Source: a virus (Duplodnaviria > Heunggongvirae > Uroviricota > Caudoviricetes). From it: 41,849 bases of DNA. Position 1 is the first letter of the stretch; every line of letters starts with the position of its first letter. The stretch covers positions 1 through 41,849 of IMG/VR virus record IMGVR_UViG_3300027796_000011; one strand, 5' to 3'. Position numbers and translations under genes: made by a program. Of the stretch, positions 7,652 to 27,568 are shown in pieces. The notes under the pieces were generated by a model that saw only the letters and a program-made list of their open reading frames with translations, made no database searches and was not told where the DNA came from.

Positions 7652-7728
7652 GCTGGATTAGCTCAAATGGCTAGAGCCGCTGACTTGTAATCAGCAGGTT
7701 GCGGGTTCGAGTCCCGTGTCCAGCTCCA
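7652..7728 (+). tRNA. tRNA-Thr (anticodon TGT), CCA encoded
   Basis: Full cloverleaf: acceptor GCTGGAT/GTCCAGC, D stem GCTC/GAGC, anticodon arm GCTGA-CTTGTAA-TCAGC, T arm GCGGG-TTCGAGT-CCCGT, 77 nt ending CCA. Confidence 0.97.
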
Positions 7729-16543: not shown

Positions 16544-19168
16544 CTAGAGTTGATAGTCTTCAAGGGTTGCCAGGGTTTTACCTGTCTGGATATCCGACCC
16601 GAACGGGATGGGAAACTCAATCCCAAATTCTTTCTTAATCGGCGGGTTGACCATGCACTCATACAGGCGGGGTGCAAACGTCGGGATGAAGTCATCCCTA
16701 ACCATGTAGATAAGTTCGTCGTGGATGAAGCAAACCAACTTCGCTTTATCTTCACAGATGTTCTGTCTGTGGGCAGTCAACGCAGAGAACAAAACAGTAT
16801 CATTACTAGCAGACTGAATCGGCGTGTTGATTGCAGCCCGCTCATCTTCAGACCGTTTAGAGAAGTCCTTGGAGTTGATATTAGCAAGCCTACGAATAAA
16901 CCCATAGTCTGTACGGACAAACCCCTGCTCTTTGGCTTTAGCTATTTCGTCTCTATGCCATCCTTCTAGAGCGGGGTAAGCAGTGAAGAACCCTTTTCTA
17001 AAGGCTTCTGCCTCTGCGAGTGTGATCTTAACCCCGTACTCATCACGAGCATATGCTTGCAACTTTTTCGCCTGCATACCGAAGAGCAACCCGAAATTCA
17101 CAGCCTTCGCCTTGGTGCGGTAACTCTTCATCTCAGATGCAGACATATCCTGCGGGTTGCGTCCGTCCATAGCAATCAGCATTTCTGCTGTATGTGTGTG
17201 GACATCTTTGCCCTGCACGTACAGCCCTCGCAGAATCTCATCGAAGGCTCTGACAGCAGCCCAACGCAATTCTGCCTGTGAAGCATCGGCAGTGACGAAG
17301 GAGTAGCCGGGGTCAGCAATAATCAAAGAGCGAATGACATTGGCGATGTCTTTGTTACGCTTGGGAATCTGCTGCAAGTTGGGGTTGGAAACCGCAGTCC
17401 TACCCGTGGCTGTAGCACATTTACTGATGTTGGGATGGAACCGCCCATCAGGAAAGACGCATTTAGGAAAGCCATTGAGATAGGTGGAGTACAACTTCTG
17501 GTATGGTCCCCACTCTATGTAGGTTGAAATCAGTTCCTTGGCGGGATGGTCATCATCCAATTCATCCCGCATACGCACCAGGAGTTTCCGGCCCACCCCA
17601 TCCCCACCGGCAGGGGTCTTCTCCAGAGGATTGAGATTGAAGCCTTCCTTGGAAAACAAAACATCCCGCAGAAGGTCAGTACGAGACAGTTTAAGTCCCT
17701 TCTCCCGCTGGCGTTCAAGAACTTTTCTGGGCATGAGCGAGATGAACTTGTTCGTCTGCTGATTCAGGAAATCTGCCACCTTCTCTTTAGCGGCGGGAAG
17801 GCGTTCCTGGTCGAACAATACACCGTTCTTCTCAATCTCATAAAGCACTTCTGTCGTAACCGGATGCACCAACTTGATGTAGTATTCAGCAAGTCTCATG
17901 TCGGTACACAGACGATCTTTCAAGATAGTTGCACAATCAAAAGTAGAGGCAGTGTCACCACAAGCGTACTGCGAGTGTCTTTCGGGATTCTCTTTTGCAG
18001 CAGCAAGCATGTCAGACTTATCAACTTCCTGTGCAAACTTCGCTTTATGGTCAACACGATAAGGAGCAACTGCGGATTGAATGTCTTGCAAAGATGCTCT
18101 CTTGTACATGTCAGGATCGAGTGTGTGCATCACTGATTGGACATCAAGTGTGTACGCTTTGACTTCCTCCCGCTCAATGCCTAACTGACGAAAACGATGA
18201 AGGTCATAGTTACCGTTCATCATGTACTTTTTGATGGTCGGGTCGGAAAGAATCGTGCGAAGTTCTTCCACCTTTTCATCATAGTGTGCTGCTTTCTTCA
18301 CAAAAACATCAACAAGTTCTTCCTTCCTCCCCACTTTACGGGGCCATTTGATAACAAGTTCATGTTCCCCTTCCACCACCTCTGTAGCCAGCCAGATATT
18401 GTATCCATTGGTCGGGCTGGTACTCACAGAGTACGAAATCACAATGGAGTTGGGGTTGGCGAAGTCCTTCCCCTGCGTCTCCGTGTCCACCGCAACCGCT
18501 TCAGGATTTGAAGCGATTAGAGATTTAATCGACTCAACGTCACGATAATCCAGTTCTCCTGTTTCCATCAACTGATATCCGTTCTTCATGAACTGGAACA
18601 TCTGGGAGATGTCTGGACGCCACTTTGCAAACTGCTTCTGGTCACGGAGGCAGAAACCAGTGGCATACGTTGGCATGACCCAACACTGAAAGTCTTCTGA
18701 ATACTGGAGCATCCCGCGACGTTTGGAGATGCCTGTCTGGTTGAGGACTTGCTTGAAAGCAGTATCCCCAAGGGTGAGGATCATTTTGGGTTGGAGGTGC
18801 TTGAGAACATCATTAACGTAAGGCTTACAATGCTCAAGCACACTCTTCACCAGTTTCTTGTTCTGCTTCTCTTCAATGGTCAGGTGGCAACGGTGAGCAG
18901 GCATGTAATACGCCTTGTTGCCATCAAATCCGTTGGCAGCAAGCTCGTTGGCAAGTACAGTACGCTGATCCCCGGTCATTATTAGGCTCTTAGCCAAGTC
19001 CTCTGCCGATGGCCCGTCAGTCACCACCACAATTTCGGGGTGGTCTGTATTACCGAATCCTTTGAGATTGGTGAACAGACCCTCCCCGACCTTGCGACGG
19101 TATGGACCCAAAACAGGAACCTTCTCTTTTCCGATCTTTTCAAAGAGCGGACATCCCTCGCAGTGCAT
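16544..19168 (-). CDS. polA: Family A DNA polymerase with N-terminal family-4 UDG-like domain and 3'-5' exonuclease (874 aa)
   Basis: CEGC...HRC...HC Fe-S pattern; Exo I DTE, Exo II NGNYD, Exo III YACGD; PNLQQIP, ADASQAELR, KAVNFGLLFG, IHDE; ATG 19168 with AGGAGG RBS. Confidence 0.95.
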   Translation of the reverse strand: MHCEGCPLFEKIGKEKVPVLGPYRRKVGEGLFTNLKGFGNTDHPEIVVVTDGPSAEDLAKSLIMTGDQRTVLANELAANGFDGNKAYYMPAHRCHLTIEEKQNKKLVKSVLEHCKPYVNDVLKHLQPKMILTLGDTAFKQVLNQTGISKRRGMLQYSEDFQCWVMPTYATGFCLRDQKQFAKWRPDISQMFQFMKNGYQLMETGELDYRDVESIKSLIASNPEAVAVDTETQGKDFANPNSIVISYSVSTSPTNGYNIWLATEVVEGEHELVIKWPRKVGRKEELVDVFVKKAAHYDEKVEELRTILSDPTIKKYMMNGNYDLHRFRQLGIEREEVKAYTLDVQSVMHTLDPDMYKRASLQDIQSAVAPYRVDHKAKFAQEVDKSDMLAAAKENPERHSQYACGDTASTFDCATILKDRLCTDMRLAEYYIKLVHPVTTEVLYEIEKNGVLFDQERLPAAKEKVADFLNQQTNKFISLMPRKVLERQREKGLKLSRTDLLRDVLFSKEGFNLNPLEKTPAGGDGVGRKLLVRMRDELDDDHPAKELISTYIEWGPYQKLYSTYLNGFPKCVFPDGRFHPNISKCATATGRTAVSNPNLQQIPKRNKDIANVIRSLIIADPGYSFVTADASQAELRWAAVRAFDEILRGLYVQGKDVHTHTAEMLIAMDGRNPQDMSASEMKSYRTKAKAVNFGLLFGMQAKKLQAYARDEYGVKITLAEAEAFRKGFFTAYPALEGWHRDEIAKAKEQGFVRTDYGFIRRLANINSKDFSKRSEDERAAINTPIQSASNDTVLFSALTAHRQNICEDKAKLVCFIHDELIYMVRDDFIPTFAPRLYECMVNPPIKKEFGIEFPIPFGSDIQTGKTLATLEDYQL

Positions 19169-19192
19169 ATATTCCCTCCTAGTGTCAAAGGG

Positions 19193-19222
19193 ATAATATA
19201 CATCATTTTCGAGATTTGTCAA
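19193..19222 (-). promoter_or_regulatory. sigma70 promoter for polA
   Basis: TTGACA (19222-19217) with TATATT at 16 nt or TATTAT at 18 nt. Confidence 0.65.
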
Positions 19223-19245
19223 GGTAAAATGGGGACTTTTCTTGG

Positions 19246-19265
19246 TTTTGAAGTCAACTTCAAAA
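19246..19265. promoter_or_regulatory. Extended palindromic site TTTTGAAG-TCAA-CTTCAAAA
   Basis: 8-4-8 perfect inverted repeat containing TGMARTYRAYTKCA, upstream of the polA promoter. Confidence 0.75.
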
Positions 19266-19266
19266 A

Positions 19267-19542
19267 CTATTTCTCTGCCACGGGCAGGGTGACGGTCTGC
19301 TCCATCTTTCTTCCGTTGGCAGTGGTGACTGCACACTTAACGCTGTACTTCTGTTTTGCCGTCCCGCCAGACAGCCAGACAACCGCTTTGGTGGTGTCGT
19401 TTGTCTGACTCATTTTTGTAATGCCTGTGGGAACAGTCCAGGTAACTGCGGAAATGGTGTCCCCTGTGACAAGACGGGCAGCCCAATCAACAGTGTAGTC
19501 CAATTCTTCTTCGGGGTCTTTAGAAGGCCATAACAGTGCCAT
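19267..19542 (-). CDS. Small virion protein, fibre-adaptor-like (KDP..LDY..DW family)
   Basis: KDPEEELDYTVDW...VWLSGG...Y...C.VTT..GR pattern of small beta-sandwich phage structural proteins. Confidence 0.7.
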   Translation of the reverse strand: MALLWPSKDPEEELDYTVDWAARLVTGDTISAVTWTVPTGITKMSQTNDTTKAVVWLSGGTAKQKYSVKCAVTTANGRKMEQTVTLPVAEK

Positions 19543-23465: not shown

Positions 23466-23479
23466 TGAAGTTAATTTCA
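23466..23479. promoter_or_regulatory. Palindromic operator-like site TGAAGTTAATTTCA
   Basis: Perfect match in the 43-nt gap between endolysin and the appendage module. Confidence 0.7.
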
Positions 23480-23483
23480 AAAA

Positions 23484-24062
23484 CTAAAGGGCAAATATTA
23501 AAGCCTCCAAGTCAGCACAACGTCTGAACCAGCCTTTCTTGAACTTCTGAAGCACGGGGTTATTGGCTATGATGCTGTTGTAGAACTTCCGCCTTTCCTC
23601 GATGAAACGTATGGCAAATGTCCTATCTGCTTCCGGGTTGGAACAGATAGCCTTTACAGCCTTTATGGTTTTAGGCCCGATCTTGCCGTCAATGGCTACC
23701 GTATGCCCAGAGTAGAAGTTACAAATCTGCTGAAGGATGCGGGACGCCCTCCCGCCACCGGCGTTGATAGCCGTGTCATAGAAGACGATGGACGCAAAAA
23801 ACGGGAAGGAATCAAGATCGTAGTTATCCCAGAAGAAGTCTTTGTAGAGACGAAGCGCATCCTCTTTGGTCAGATGCTTGATGTCAGCCTTATCAATGTC
23901 TCCATCACCGTCGATATCTCCATCTTTAAGAGGTAGACCAGATAGAAACCGAAGACTGATACCCATATTAGTAGCCCCACCAGAATCTCCAGCCACATCA
24001 CAATAGCCGCCTTCCCACTTGAAGACAAAATCTTGTGCGAGTTCATAGCTACTCTTGTCCAT
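23484..24062 (-). CDS. Endolysin, glycoside hydrolase family 108 with C-terminal peptidoglycan-binding domain
   Basis: WEGGY...D.GG.TN.GIS; FYDTAINAG; DGKIGPKT; F.KGW..R. Confidence 0.92.
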   Translation of the reverse strand: MDKSSYELAQDFVFKWEGGYCDVAGDSGGATNMGISLRFLSGLPLKDGDIDGDGDIDKADIKHLTKEDALRLYKDFFWDNYDLDSFPFFASIVFYDTAINAGGGRASRILQQICNFYSGHTVAIDGKIGPKTIKAVKAICSNPEADRTFAIRFIEERRKFYNSIIANNPVLQKFKKGWFRRCADLEALIFAL

Positions 24063-24074
24063 CTTACACCCCCA

Positions 24075-24335
24075 CTATTCATTGGTGGTTTTATCAAGTT
24101 CTTCGTACTTTTTGCTTACAACCTTGAAGAGGATAGCTATGACAGAGGTTGCCAAAGTGCTTACCTCCCCAATCCCTAGTGGGATGAAAGTCTGGGACAT
24201 AAGAGAAAGATATGCCCAAATAGACAGAATGAGAGTAGATGCCAAGACACAATAAGCAACAACGCCAGCCACAAGGATTCTCGTAGACGATGGGTTGCCA
24301 TTATCATCCTCAAACACCTGTCTCCAGAAGCCCAT
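24075..24335 (-). CDS. Holin (two predicted TM helices)
   Basis: 86 aa, GNPSSTR then two hydrophobic helices and charged C-tail, directly before endolysin. Confidence 0.7.
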   Translation of the reverse strand: MGFWRQVFEDDNGNPSSTRILVAGVVAYCVLASTLILSIWAYLSLMSQTFIPLGIGEVSTLATSVIAILFKVVSKKYEELDKTTNE

Positions 24336-24790
24336 TACTTCACCCCTATCTGGTCAAGTGTGTATTTCAGGTAGCCAAACATGGTCAGCCCTATTGCCGA
24401 TATAGCAGTGCCCAACCACAGCACTTTCTTGTAAGCTGCGTGCATCTCTTTGACGGGGGTGGACGCCTCTTCCACGGCCTCTTTGAGGCTCTTCAGGAGG
24501 TCTTCCTCCCGCCTGATTTCGCGCTCTACAGCCAGGGCGGTGCGGGAAGAGCACTCTCTGTCATGTGTCTGGAAACACACAGAAATGGTTTCTTCATGCT
24601 CACCGATATGCTCTTTCAGTAGTTTTCGGATGTCCTCATTTTCGGGGACGGTATCCAGGGTTTCCAGTATTCTCACAACGCTGTTAGAGATGCCTGCCAA
24701 TGCTTGGGTGTTTCTAGCCACCTCTTGGGCCAGGGAATCTGTAACCTCCTTCACTAGAGAAAGGAGTTGCCGTGCCTGCTCAATATCCAC
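24335..24790 (-). CDS. Coiled-coil protein with C-terminal membrane anchor (lysis-cassette accessory)
   Basis: 151 aa, helical N-part, KKVLWLGTAISAIGLTMFGYLK TM; TAGTG and TAATG overlaps with neighbours. Confidence 0.75.
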   Translation of the reverse strand: MDIEQARQLLSLVKEVTDSLAQEVARNTQALAGISNSVVRILETLDTVPENEDIRKLLKEHIGEHEETISVCFQTHDRECSSRTALAVEREIRREEDLLKSLKEAVEEASTPVKEMHAAYKKVLWLGTAISAIGLTMFGYLKYTLDQIGVK

Positions 24791-25668
24791 TACTGACCTC
24801 TCTCTAGGTTCTGAATCTTCACCTCATTCTCCTTGAGAATTTGGTGTGTCTTTTCAGTGGCCTTGAACAACGCATCTTTCATTCTAGCCACTTCCACCTG
24901 TGCCAACTGCAACAACTCTTCTGCTTGCTGATGCCTGTATGTGACATCCCGTCCGATGGTCTGTACCTCAAGAAGTCTTCCCTGCCTGTCAAAAATGCCG
25001 ACCTTCTTCCATAGCACCCATCTGTTTGAGAGTTTCGTTTCCACACTTTCAGAGGTGGGGTTCTCCAGTGTGAGGGCTTCCACTTTATCATTGTGCATGG
25101 ACATGAACTTGCCGCGCATGTAATCAGAAAGATTTGTCCCAAGAACATTCCCCAAAGACATATTCAATAAAGCACAGATGGCTTTGTTGGCGAAAGTAAT
25201 GGTGCCATCGGGACGGAAACGAACAATGTAGTCAGGGGAGAGGTCAACCACAGAGTTGTACAGGTCACACTTGGATTGAAGTTCCTGTCTAAGACGGTAC
25301 TTCTCTGCGGTAAGCAGTAAAACAAGCGGGAGGGTCTTCTGTTCCGTCTTCAGGACGTATGAGTCCGCCCCCGCTGCTATGGTTTCTTTGGCCGTATGCA
25401 AGTCATCGTCACTAGTGAGAACAACGATGGGGATATTCGGGCACAGGGCTTTAACGGCATCAACACTCTGTGTGCCATAACTGTCGGGAAGGTGCAGATC
25501 GACAAGAGCTATGTCAAAGCAGCCTTCCGACAATTTGTATTTAGCATCTTCCAGGGAGCGGACGGCAGAGTACATGTAGTCTTCATCCCCCAGGCTGCGC
25601 TCTAGGAGTTTTTGGACTACAAGGATTTGTGTCAGATCGTCTTCTATGTGCAGTACGCGAAAGCTCAT
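24790..25668 (-). CDS. Response-regulator receiver plus PAS domain protein, no output domain
   Basis: REC: HIEDD, ALVDLHLPDS, VVLTS, GADSYVLK; PAS: SPDYIVRFRPDG.ITFAN...GRLLEVQTIGRDVT; C-terminal coiled coil. Confidence 0.92.
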   Translation of the reverse strand: MSFRVLHIEDDLTQILVVQKLLERSLGDEDYMYSAVRSLEDAKYKLSEGCFDIALVDLHLPDSYGTQSVDAVKALCPNIPIVVLTSDDDLHTAKETIAAGADSYVLKTEQKTLPLVLLLTAEKYRLRQELQSKCDLYNSVVDLSPDYIVRFRPDGTITFANKAICALLNMSLGNVLGTNLSDYMRGKFMSMHNDKVEALTLENPTSESVETKLSNRWVLWKKVGIFDRQGRLLEVQTIGRDVTYRHQQAEELLQLAQVEVARMKDALFKATEKTHQILKENEVKIQNLERGQ

Positions 25669-25689
25669 GCCGTCCCCTTAATGGTTTTT

Positions 25690-25703
25690 TGAAGTTGACT
25701 TCA
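25690..25703. promoter_or_regulatory. Palindromic operator-like site TGAAGTTGACTTCA
   Basis: Perfect match about 21 nt upstream of the REC-PAS start codon, in the 38-nt gap after the o-spanin. Confidence 0.75.
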
Positions 25704-25706
25704 ATC

Positions 25707-26021
25707 CTACTTGTTTGTGGCTTCCCGCAACTCTTTGAGTCTGGTGTTCTGTGCCCTAGCAGCCTCGTACTTTACGAACAATTTTTCAGCCCAATCCTTC
25801 AACTTCGTTATGTTTTCCATAAAAATTTCAGAGTTCAGTTCGGACTCTAGAGGTTCGTCCTGCACCATCTCCTGGTACTGCGGGCGGGGAATTTCGGGAA
25901 GGTCAAGCATCGCCTGCCCGATTTCAATCTTAGCCGGGCCGGTGGTGGGCACCCCCGCGCAGCCACTAATTGAAAATGTGAGTACGAAGATAACCAACAA
26001 GGTCTTTACTAGACTTTTCAT
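25707..26021 (-). CDS. Outer-membrane spanin (Rz1-like lipoprotein)
   Basis: Signal peptide with lipobox ISGC, Pro-rich segment, overlaps the i-spanin 3' end. Confidence 0.8.
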   Translation of the reverse strand: MKSLVKTLLVIFVLTFSISGCAGVPTTGPAKIEIGQAMLDLPEIPRPQYQEMVQDEPLESELNSEIFMENITKLKDWAEKLFVKYEAARAQNTRLKELREATNK

Positions 26022-26370
26022 CTAGGACTCCTTTCTCTATCGCTTCCTTGGCGGGGATGTAAGTCCGCTTTTCAATTACAGTTGTTTTAGCAGACGCCCT
26101 ATCAACCCGCTTATCACATTCAATATCCATCTTCCCAACAAGTTCCTTCAGGCTGGTGACATCAATGGTCAACTCTTTCTTCCTGATTTCAGCTAGATTC
26201 AACTTCTCCTGCAAGGACACTTTTTGGGCTTCAAGTTTGTCGATAGATGCCTTGAGGTTGTCAATGGTATTCCCCTGCTGGTAGGCTCGAAATACCAGAA
26301 AGAGAATAACTAGGACAACTGCCGCGTACCCCATGAGTTTTGCATTTGTTATTCCGAACATACTACCCAC
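25966..26370 (-). CDS. Inner-membrane spanin (Rz-like)
   Basis: N-terminal TM helix followed by long coiled coil. Confidence 0.75.
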   Translation of the reverse strand: MGSMFGITNAKLMGYAAVVLVILFLVFRAYQQGNTIDNLKASIDKLEAQKVSLQEKLNLAEIRKKELTIDVTSLKELVGKMDIECDKRVDRASAKTTVIEKRTYIPAKEAIEKGVLDEKSSKDLVGYLRTHIFN

Positions 26371-27271: not shown

Positions 27272-27568
27272 CTATACCCCCAGATAAGTGATTATGCCAG
27301 ACATGATAAGACAGGCACAAAAGGGCCACATAAAATCGTTTCTTCCATCCAAATCGTACTCTATTGGAGTCCAACCCCGCCACCAGCGAAGGTCTTTGGA
27401 GTGTATCTCGAAGTCACGTTTCTCCCTCCCCCAATAAAAGCCAATACCCAAAGCCGCACCGGCCCACCAATTACCAGTGGAGAAGCCAACTATCAGTTGC
27501 AGCAGCAAGGCAATAGCGGCGTGAATCACGCCATTCAGAAGTAGTTTGCTTGTCATGGCTAGGCCCAT
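27272..27568 (-). CDS. Small membrane protein following fibre gene
   Basis: Hydrophobic helices, GRE..D and WW motifs; start may be ATG 27556. Confidence 0.6.
   Translation of the reverse strand: MGLAMTSKLLLNGVIHAAIALLLQLIVGFSTGNWWAGAALGIGFYWGREKRDFEIHSKDLRWWRGWTPIEYDLDGRNDFMWPFCACLIMSGIITYLGV

Follow-up and report, generated by a model that had tools for sequence, protein, structure and literature searches.

The window analysed here, by which we mean the whole stretch of 41,849 nucleotides (nt) that makes up the first 41.8 kb of the 106,007-bp IMG/VR virus record IMGVR_UViG_3300027796_000011 (CheckV 100%, rated complete), was found in freshwater metagenomes and belongs to a tailed phage whose lysis region contains an unusual pair of genes: one for a sensor protein that joins a receiver (REC) domain to a PAS domain, and one, immediately following, for a membrane-anchored partner of 151 residues. 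The genes of this region all lie on the minus strand of the window and, in the order of transcription, they run from a 2451-residue tape measure through tail and fibre genes to a 98-residue membrane protein and a 298-residue protein, continuing with an i-spanin-like protein, an overlapping lipoprotein, the REC-PAS sensor, the 151-residue partner, an 86-residue protein with two transmembrane segments (2-TM) and, finally, the endolysin. The features of the pair itself are the following:

24790–25668, minus strand: REC-PAS sensor protein of 292 residues, without an output domain (Pfam, AlphaFold2, seven full-length relatives)
25339–25656, minus strand: REC domain, residues 5–110, with E9, D10, D57, T85, Y104 and K107 (Pfam, alignments, Foldseek)
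24928–25245, minus strand: PAS domain, residues 142–247 (PAS_4; five strands at 147–241 in AlphaFold2)
24796–24942, minus strand: C-terminal 49-residue helix of the REC-PAS protein, residues 243–291 (AlphaFold2)
24335–24790, minus strand: partner protein of 151 residues with a GTG start, a helical hairpin and a single C-terminal transmembrane helix
24368–24424, minus strand: predicted transmembrane helix of the partner, residues 123–141 (hydropathy scan; position kept in 23 family members)

A preliminary description, made from the letters alone, had recognised in the sensor a CheY-like receiver with its complete set of phospho-signalling residues, then a PAS domain and a short C-terminal coiled coil, with no output domain, and all of this is borne out. 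Pfam identifies Response_reg (PF00072, E-value 2e-14, 54.2 bits against a cut-off of 30.2, residues 5–110) and PAS_4 (PF08448, E-value 3.2e-9, 37.4 bits against a cut-off of 23.1, residues 142–247), together with PAS (PF00989, 27.8 bits against a cut-off of 22.6), and finds no further domain in the protein. The AlphaFold2 model (predicted local distance difference test, pLDDT, of 81.7) consists of a (beta-alpha)5 receiver (1–106), a linker helix (107–137), a five-stranded PAS domain (147–241, with strands at 147–151, 156–160, 209–213, 216–226 and 232–241) and a C-terminal helix (243–291), this last occupying, in the alignment with the REC-PAS-cyclase P0008, the place in which the cellular relatives have the signalling helix before their output domain. 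Foldseek matched the receivers of PhoP, PmrA and CheY with template modelling (TM) scores, by target, of 0.8–0.87, and also REC-sensor proteins. The phospho-signalling residues are E9 and D10 (with D11), D57 in LVDLHLPD, T85 in VVLTS and K107 in YVLK; E9, D10, D57, T85, Y104 and K107 do not vary among the seven full-length relatives, whose identity is 44–100%, and D57, T/S85 and K107 are kept in the more distant sensors of the lineages L016, L012, L010 and L018. As for what the PAS domain could bind, the alignment of relatives contains neither the LOV motif NCRFL nor any other conserved cofactor motif, and a heme-type PAS was rejected, its sole F-alpha His (H192) being present only in the closest subgroup and four of the seven relatives (P0004–P0007) having Phe in its place.

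The absence of a histidine kinase, claimed beforehand for the window, holds for the complete 106-kb record, which has one REC only and no HATPase_c, no histidine phosphotransfer (HPt) and no GGDEF domain; a single sub-threshold HisKA match, inside the tape-measure gene, is noise. Phosphoryl groups would therefore have to reach the sensor from a kinase or HPt protein of the host, or from a small molecule, for instance acetyl phosphate. Orphan receivers are common, so that a missing cognate kinase is no bar to membership of the receiver family.

A word-indexed search of 5.8 billion proteins gave the seven full-length relatives mentioned above, all of them stand-alone proteins of 291–293 residues on phage-type or short metagenomic contigs, in such a way that the possibility raised at the outset, namely that homologues might occur only in bacterial chromosomes and fused to kinases, did not materialise: the relatives above 44% identity stand alone, and none is present in 185,579 species genomes, which accordingly yielded neither a prophage copy nor a host. 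The closest cellular proteins, which align with some 85% of the phage protein at 26–34% identity, continue into a fused GGDEF, cyclase or kinase domain, and since these matches carry fused outputs the phage family would represent a distinct clade without one. A scan of IMG/VR gave one other record with a sensor relative, the L006 contig; megablast found no close phage relative in 50,697 phage records, and the tblastn matches, in Salmonella and Escherichia coli records, were confined to the receiver, at 33% identity.

The second member of the pair is present in a single copy in the phage genome. Its AlphaFold2 model (pLDDT 84) is a hairpin of two helices, 2–46 and 50–147, of which the second enters the membrane, and as the protein has no signal peptide and is anchored by its single C-terminal transmembrane helix, the hairpin should lie on the cytoplasmic side, that of the sensor. 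In Pfam and PHROG no family matches it at an E-value of 0.01 or better, the matches between 0.01 and 5 being scattered and at chance level, as is that of Phage_holin_3_3 to one of seven family members (E-value 0.063), and neither the sensor nor the partner has significant homology, in PHROG or Pfam, to a characterised antiholin or lysis regulator. A profile built from seven partners and searched against 1.84 billion representatives gave about 20 proteins of 139–197 residues, in addition to two long repetitive coiled-coil proteins that were regarded as noise. As judged from these searches, the partner is the founder of a small family, outside Pfam and on phage-type or short contigs only.

In the alignment of 23 members P48 and R82 are invariant, and H75 and C79 nearly so; the family is thus marked by an EPTR turn that includes the invariant Pro, then by a stripe, H-x3-C-x2-R, along a single helix face, and then by the C-terminal transmembrane helix. 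If the partner were a parallel dimer, the stripe could form a His2Cys2 metal or redox site, and the conserved motifs, which persist while the type of sensor changes, are for that reason more probably concerned with the output, or with the binding of a cofactor, than with the interface to the sensor. Two other approaches to the partner led to rejected candidates: the fold search (PDB sequence profile, VIA-align wide) gave nothing beyond coiled coils of a generic sort and designed bundles of helices (Z ≤8), and a phosphotransfer domain of the DHp (dimerization and histidine phosphotransfer) or HPt type was discarded on the basis of an hhalign probability of 0.5% against REC-HisKA_3-HATPase, the lack of a Pfam match and the change of His to Arg in L006.

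The pair is closely bound to the genes that surround it. The partner start overlaps the sensor stop in TAGTG, the holin-like start overlaps the partner stop in TAATG, and Shine-Dalgarno-like runs, read directly, precede each start codon of the cassette, in agreement with the position between spanins and holin and the translational coupling that had been described, the names of spanin and holin being here based on features. The neighbouring elements are:

24075–24335, minus strand: holin-like 2-TM protein of 86 residues (transmembrane scan, homologues in lysis regions, weak phrog_1356 match)
23484–24062, minus strand: endolysin of 192 residues, soluble, GH108 and PG_binding_3 (Pfam, phrog_315)
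25966–26370, minus strand: i-spanin-like protein of 134 residues (N-terminal transmembrane segment and coiled coil; weak profile matches)
25707–26021, minus strand: o-spanin-like lipoprotein of 104 residues, lipobox ISGC (sequence, overlap with the 3′ end of the i-spanin-like gene)
27272–27568, minus strand: 98-residue membrane protein, phrog_1443 (conserved in L007, where it also precedes the spanin-like genes)
25690–25703, no strand: palindrome copy, 21 nt upstream of the REC-PAS start codon
23466–23479, no strand: palindrome copy, directly 3′ of the endolysin stop

The endolysin is identified by Glyco_hydro_108 (E-value 5e-17), PG_binding_3 (8.5e-15) and the endolysin family phrog_315 (1.3e-38). 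Twelve nt upstream of its start ends the gene of the 86-residue protein, which has two transmembrane segments and the charged C-terminus KKYEELDKTTNE, and which among the described holin families matches phrog_1356 weakly (E-value 0.022) and no Pfam family, its structural neighbour in the Atlas being Phage_holin_4_1 (TM score 0.68). The profile matches of the i-spanin-like protein are likewise weak (DUF2570, E-value 6.5e-4; Rz-like phrog_739, 3.9e-3); its gene and that of the lipoprotein overlap over 25966–26021, so that a two-component spanin architecture is present, with labels taken from features. Promoter-like and terminator-like counts in the window do not exceed those of shuffled sequence, and a scan of the coding strand from the spanin-like genes to the endolysin found no promoter-like site, which is consistent with co-expression of the cassette with the late genes. 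Further upstream, the 98-residue phrog_1443 protein carries a conserved GNWWAGAALGIGFYWGREKRDFE motif, and it may be a second component of the lysis region, of the holin or antiholin type.

The palindrome TGAAGTTGACTTCA at 25690–25703 lies between the lipoprotein stop and the ribosome-binding site of the sensor gene, where a copy of an operator had been described. As TGMARTYRAYTKCA it occurs without mismatch 8 times in the window, where 0.01 copies would be expected, and the copies at 23466–23479 and 25690–25703 bracket exactly the four-gene unit of sensor, partner, holin-like protein and endolysin. Both bracketing copies lie in short gaps, just before the next ribosome-binding site. The copy before the sensor gene is therefore present as claimed; however, it belongs to this phage alone, and the idea that it is a conserved element of the module was rejected, given that the palindrome is found only in copies of the same phage and occurs neither in the related phage L007 nor in any of the other lineages.

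What gives the pair its interest is that it recurs in phages of different constitution, in the following arrangements:

L001–L003 (same phage) and L007 (60% relative): sensor, 151-residue partner, holin-like protein, GH108 endolysin
L004–L006 (44–47% relatives, from another siphophage, one with a tail of the Rcc01698 type): holin-like protein, sensor, 183-residue partner, Amidase_2 endolysin
L012: SLT hydrolase, holin-like protein of 74 residues, Rz-like protein of 190 residues, REC-only sensor of 186 residues, partner, SU10-type portal
L016: Amidase_2 endolysin, 56-residue protein, 2-TM-like protein of 89/108 residues, Rz-like protein of 183 residues, REC-PAS sensor of 334 residues, partner
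L018: 2-TM protein of 75 residues, 104-residue membrane protein, 149-residue lipoprotein, 205-residue protein, REC-PAS sensor of 289 residues, partner, GH108 endolysin
L010: REC-coiled-coil sensor, partner, gene with a uracil-DNA-glycosylase (UDG) domain
L014 and L015: sensors truncated at the contig end, their PAS domain and coiled coil still recognisable
L019 (an AT-rich lineage): PAS-only sensor of 235 residues (28–735), without a receiver, then the partner

The sensor gene is directly upstream of the partner gene in each of the 11 readable lineages (11/11), overlapping it or separated from it by 8 nt at most, and a peptidoglycan hydrolase, of the GH108, Amidase_2 or SLT type according to the lineage, is found within three genes of the pair in all seven of the lineages that have enough flanking DNA. 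The synteny suggested as a check on the preliminary description is thus present wherever the flanks allow it to be read, in phages that differ in body plan (TMP_3 tape measure, Rcc01698-type tail, SU10-type portal). The 151-residue and 183-residue partners are homologous, as are the 2-TM holin-like proteins, and yet this holin-like family switches sides, being downstream of the pair in the window and in L007, and upstream of it in L004–L006 and L012; that the holin-like gene has moved while sensor and partner stayed joined argues for a functional, and not an accidental, linkage. Beyond the endolysin, L004 and L005 continue with an overlapping spanin-like pair, and L006 with a 121-residue lipoprotein and a 191-residue protein. 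A conserved protein of about 200 residues (IPYLEGGRDLCVTG...), without a Pfam family, adjoins sensor, partner and endolysin in L006 (12694–13269) and in L018 (1586–2203).

Over the 11 lineages the sensor is of the REC-PAS type in eight (two of them cut by contig ends), of the REC-only type in two and of the PAS-only type in one, and these alternative sensors share only their C-terminal coiled coil. As the type of sensor varies in front of the same partner, the partner is the constant element, with REC, REC-PAS and PAS as alternative inputs; in other words, the partner would be the conserved output and the sensors are interchangeable, and the PAS-only sensor of L019 shows the swapping of inputs within the same module. 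Consequently, of the earlier proposal of a REC-PAS module that tunes lysis, the synteny stands and the central place given to REC-PAS does not: the PAS domain, and even the REC domain, can be dispensed with, and the conserved core is the partner.

The best reading of these data, one that we hold with moderate confidence, is that the two proteins constitute a phospho- or ligand-gated regulator of lysis that acts after translation. The sensor, with its receiver, linker helix, PAS domain and free C-terminal helix, would be the cytoplasmic and phosphorylatable input half of a two-gene module, and the 151-residue protein, tail-anchored in the inner membrane, would be the output half, both being co-translated within the late lysis cassette. 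In cellular proteins a C-terminal enzyme receives the conformational change of the rod formed by REC, helix, PAS and helix; the rod of the phage protein has a free end, and it is the next gene that supplies a hairpin. Phosphorylation of D57, by a host kinase, an HPt protein or acetyl phosphate, and/or the binding of a ligand to the PAS domain would reshape the helical rod of the sensor, whose terminal helix would pack against the cytoplasmic hairpin of the partner, so that the change in the rod would alter that contact; the partner would then promote or delay the triggering or assembly of the holin, either through its glycine-rich transmembrane helix or through its conserved cytoplasmic stripe, and the time of lysis would in this manner be matched to the state of the infected cell. 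A single complex prediction with the REC-PAS protein and residues 1–122 of the partner scored 0.01, against a mark of 0.32, a value that speaks neither for nor against such a contact.

More tentatively, and with less confidence than the regulator itself deserves, the module could be understood as a modular lysis clock running from sensor to membrane, in which the tail-anchored effector gates the holin and REC, REC-PAS or PAS inputs plug into it by means of the coiled coil, those with a REC domain eavesdropping on the histidine-kinase or acetyl-phosphate signals of the host and delaying or advancing lysis. The cues would be, for example, envelope stress caused by superinfection, or the energy state, and such a clock would be a phosphorylation-based counterpart of the lysis inhibition of T4.

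Several points weigh against the proposal of a lysis regulator. Firstly, the holin and spanin labels derive from features (size, transmembrane segments, lipobox, overlap, position) and from weak profiles (E-values of 0.004–0.02), and would be putative to that extent. Secondly, four of the partner lineages are on contigs whose length or annotation does not suffice to display lysis genes, and in L010 the gene 3′ of the partner carries a UDG domain and not a hydrolase. Thirdly, the neighbourhoods of lysis genes commonly harbour morons and superinfection-exclusion genes, so that position alone is no proof. Moreover, the model does not explain the EPTR and H-x3-C-x2-R motifs. Finally, what is shown is the domain content, the phospho-site with its conservation, the lack of a phage kinase, the constant pairing of the two genes and their repeated position next to lysis genes; that the receiver is phosphorylated, that it touches the partner, that the holin is acted upon and in which sense are what we infer.

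Of the alternative explanations, the one that survives best, unlikely though we consider it, is that the sensor is a decoy or phosphate sink for host signalling, in which an output-less receiver drains phosphoryl groups from host kinases or HPt proteins, or forms heterodimers with a REC-PAS enzyme of the host, and thereby silences a host response late in infection (envelope stress, cyclic di-GMP, cell-cycle control), the partner serving only as a tether to the membrane in which the kinases are located and the position among lysis genes being incidental. Sink-type single-domain receivers are established in chemotaxis, the phospho-site of the sensor is intact, the phage has no kinase of its own, and the nearest cellular relatives are precisely REC-PAS-GGDEF, REC-PAS-cyclase and REC-PAS-kinase proteins. 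However, a phosphate sink cannot explain why in L019 the partner is preceded by a PAS-only sensor without a receiver, nor does an incidental position agree with the recurrence of the pair beside the holin-like family and the hydrolases in unrelated phages.

A somewhat more doubtful alternative is that of a membrane module for superinfection exclusion or anti-defence, in which the partner would block the DNA of incoming phages, or the abortive infection of the host, once switched on by the sensor. This would suit a membrane-anchored protein without a known family and without homology to any known lysis protein, located in a region where exclusion genes and morons are often found; nevertheless, the genes are translationally coupled inside the run that leads to holin and endolysin, and do not form a separate moron with its own promoter, their expression with the late genes would be late for exclusion, and no PHROG or Pfam family matches at an E-value ≤0.01 (PADLOC defence models were not searched). 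The least probable alternative, an adaptor independent of phosphorylation in which the receiver is a unit of fold or dimerisation, D57 is structural and the partner is controlled by a PAS ligand or by stoichiometric binding, finds some support in the existence of both PAS-only and REC-only versions, in the absence of an encoded kinase and in the fact that atypical receivers working unphosphorylated are known, but the five catalytic positions and Y104 are invariant, or T/S, over a deep divergence, which is the pattern of active receivers.

Returning to the lysis regulator, it is worth comparing it with systems already described. In the Bacillus PBSX-type cassette, the holin and the endolysin have as their neighbour XhlA (PF10779), a small protein that begins with a coiled coil and ends in a transmembrane helix. 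The partner was linked to it only weakly, by a language model (score 0.89; 43% of the cluster belong to the family), without a significant sequence match, and XhlA, unlike the phage partner, has no sensor beside it and belongs to phages of Gram-positive bacteria. The preliminary description knew of no characterised system of this kind, and we found none either, the literature searched containing no description of a receiver or PAS protein inside a phage lysis cassette; two apparent precedents were set aside, as the “Receiver domain” of N4 gp63 is merely a label for a region of the holin, and the cREC domain of jumbo phages belongs to NAD-related systems.

The sensor resembles the output-less regulators CheY (with FliM), DivK, CpdR and Spo0F, and the stand-alone REC-PAS proteins of bacteria, in that it has the full phospho-acceptor set, no DNA-binding or enzymatic output, and a presumed action by contact with a partner; it differs from them in coming from a kinase-less phage of virulent type, in adding a PAS domain and a free C-terminal helix, and in having, within a lysis cassette, an obligate companion that is tail-anchored and represents a new family. 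With the cellular REC-PAS-GAF-GGDEF, REC-PAS-cyclase and REC-PAS-histidine-kinase proteins (P0047, P0008 and P0048, respectively) it shares the order of REC, helix and PAS, whereas the phage protein ends after its C-terminal helix.

On the side of lysis, the closest functional likeness is with RI and RIII of T4 and its holin T (PMC8385771), with gp62 of N4 and the pinholin gp63 (PMC12642591), and with S107 of lambda, since all of these are additional cassette genes, apparently non-essential, that adjust the timing of the holin, and both RIII (PMC8385771) and N4 gp62 (PMC12642591) act from the cytoplasmic side, as proposed here for the phage module. However, there is no relationship of sequence or fold with any of them, they have neither a two-component receiver nor a PAS domain, and the input of lysis inhibition of this type is superinfection. 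A phospho-relay is linked to holin-type membrane proteins in the control of the holin-like LrgAB/CidAB by LytSR/LytST (PMC3507848), and a similar likeness is offered, as context, by the control of the lysis genes of gene-transfer agents by CckA-ChpT-CtrA (PMC13236601), but these are host-encoded systems with transcriptional, DNA-binding regulators, whereas the phage sensor lacks a domain for binding DNA and its action would be post-translational. Finally, VqmA-Phi of the vibriophage VP882 (PMC10274711) is a phage PAS sensor copied from host signalling that decides the time at which the host is killed, although it is a transcription factor of the PAS and helix-turn-helix type in a lysis-lysogeny switch and not a receiver in a lysis cassette. 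In summary, the phage module works like an output-less response regulator combined with a regulator of the antiholin type, and is outside the described families of lysis regulators.

With respect to the host, the portal and the DNA polymerase are about 29% identical to those of 95–110-kb siphophages infecting Rhizobium, Agrobacterium and Rhodobacter, a similarity that for the portal extends to Pseudomonas phages; the likeness to the phages of the first three genera gives a weak hint as to the possible host. The nearest cultured matches of the endolysin are in phages of various Gram-negative bacteria, and the spanin-like genes, together with the GH108 enzyme, point to a diderm host. Elsewhere in the window, positions 16544–19336 encode a DNA polymerase A fused to an N-terminal uracil-DNA-glycosylase-like domain (Pfam UDG and DNA_pol_A), and a single tRNA-Thr (TGT) gene lies at 7652–7728, in the early region of the plus strand.

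The timing of lysis sets the burst size and the fitness of a phage and, to our knowledge, the only well-understood cases in which it is adjusted to circumstances are the lysis inhibitions of T4 and N4. What is new here is a family of partner membrane proteins with a sharply conserved motif and interchangeable inputs, in a compact module of four genes with a clear phospho-site, which makes it useful for studies of how sensors are coupled to their outputs. If the reading proposed is true, a phage would read the two-component or metabolic phospho-signals of its host after translation in order to time its bursting, and two heavily studied fields, hitherto unconnected, would be joined.

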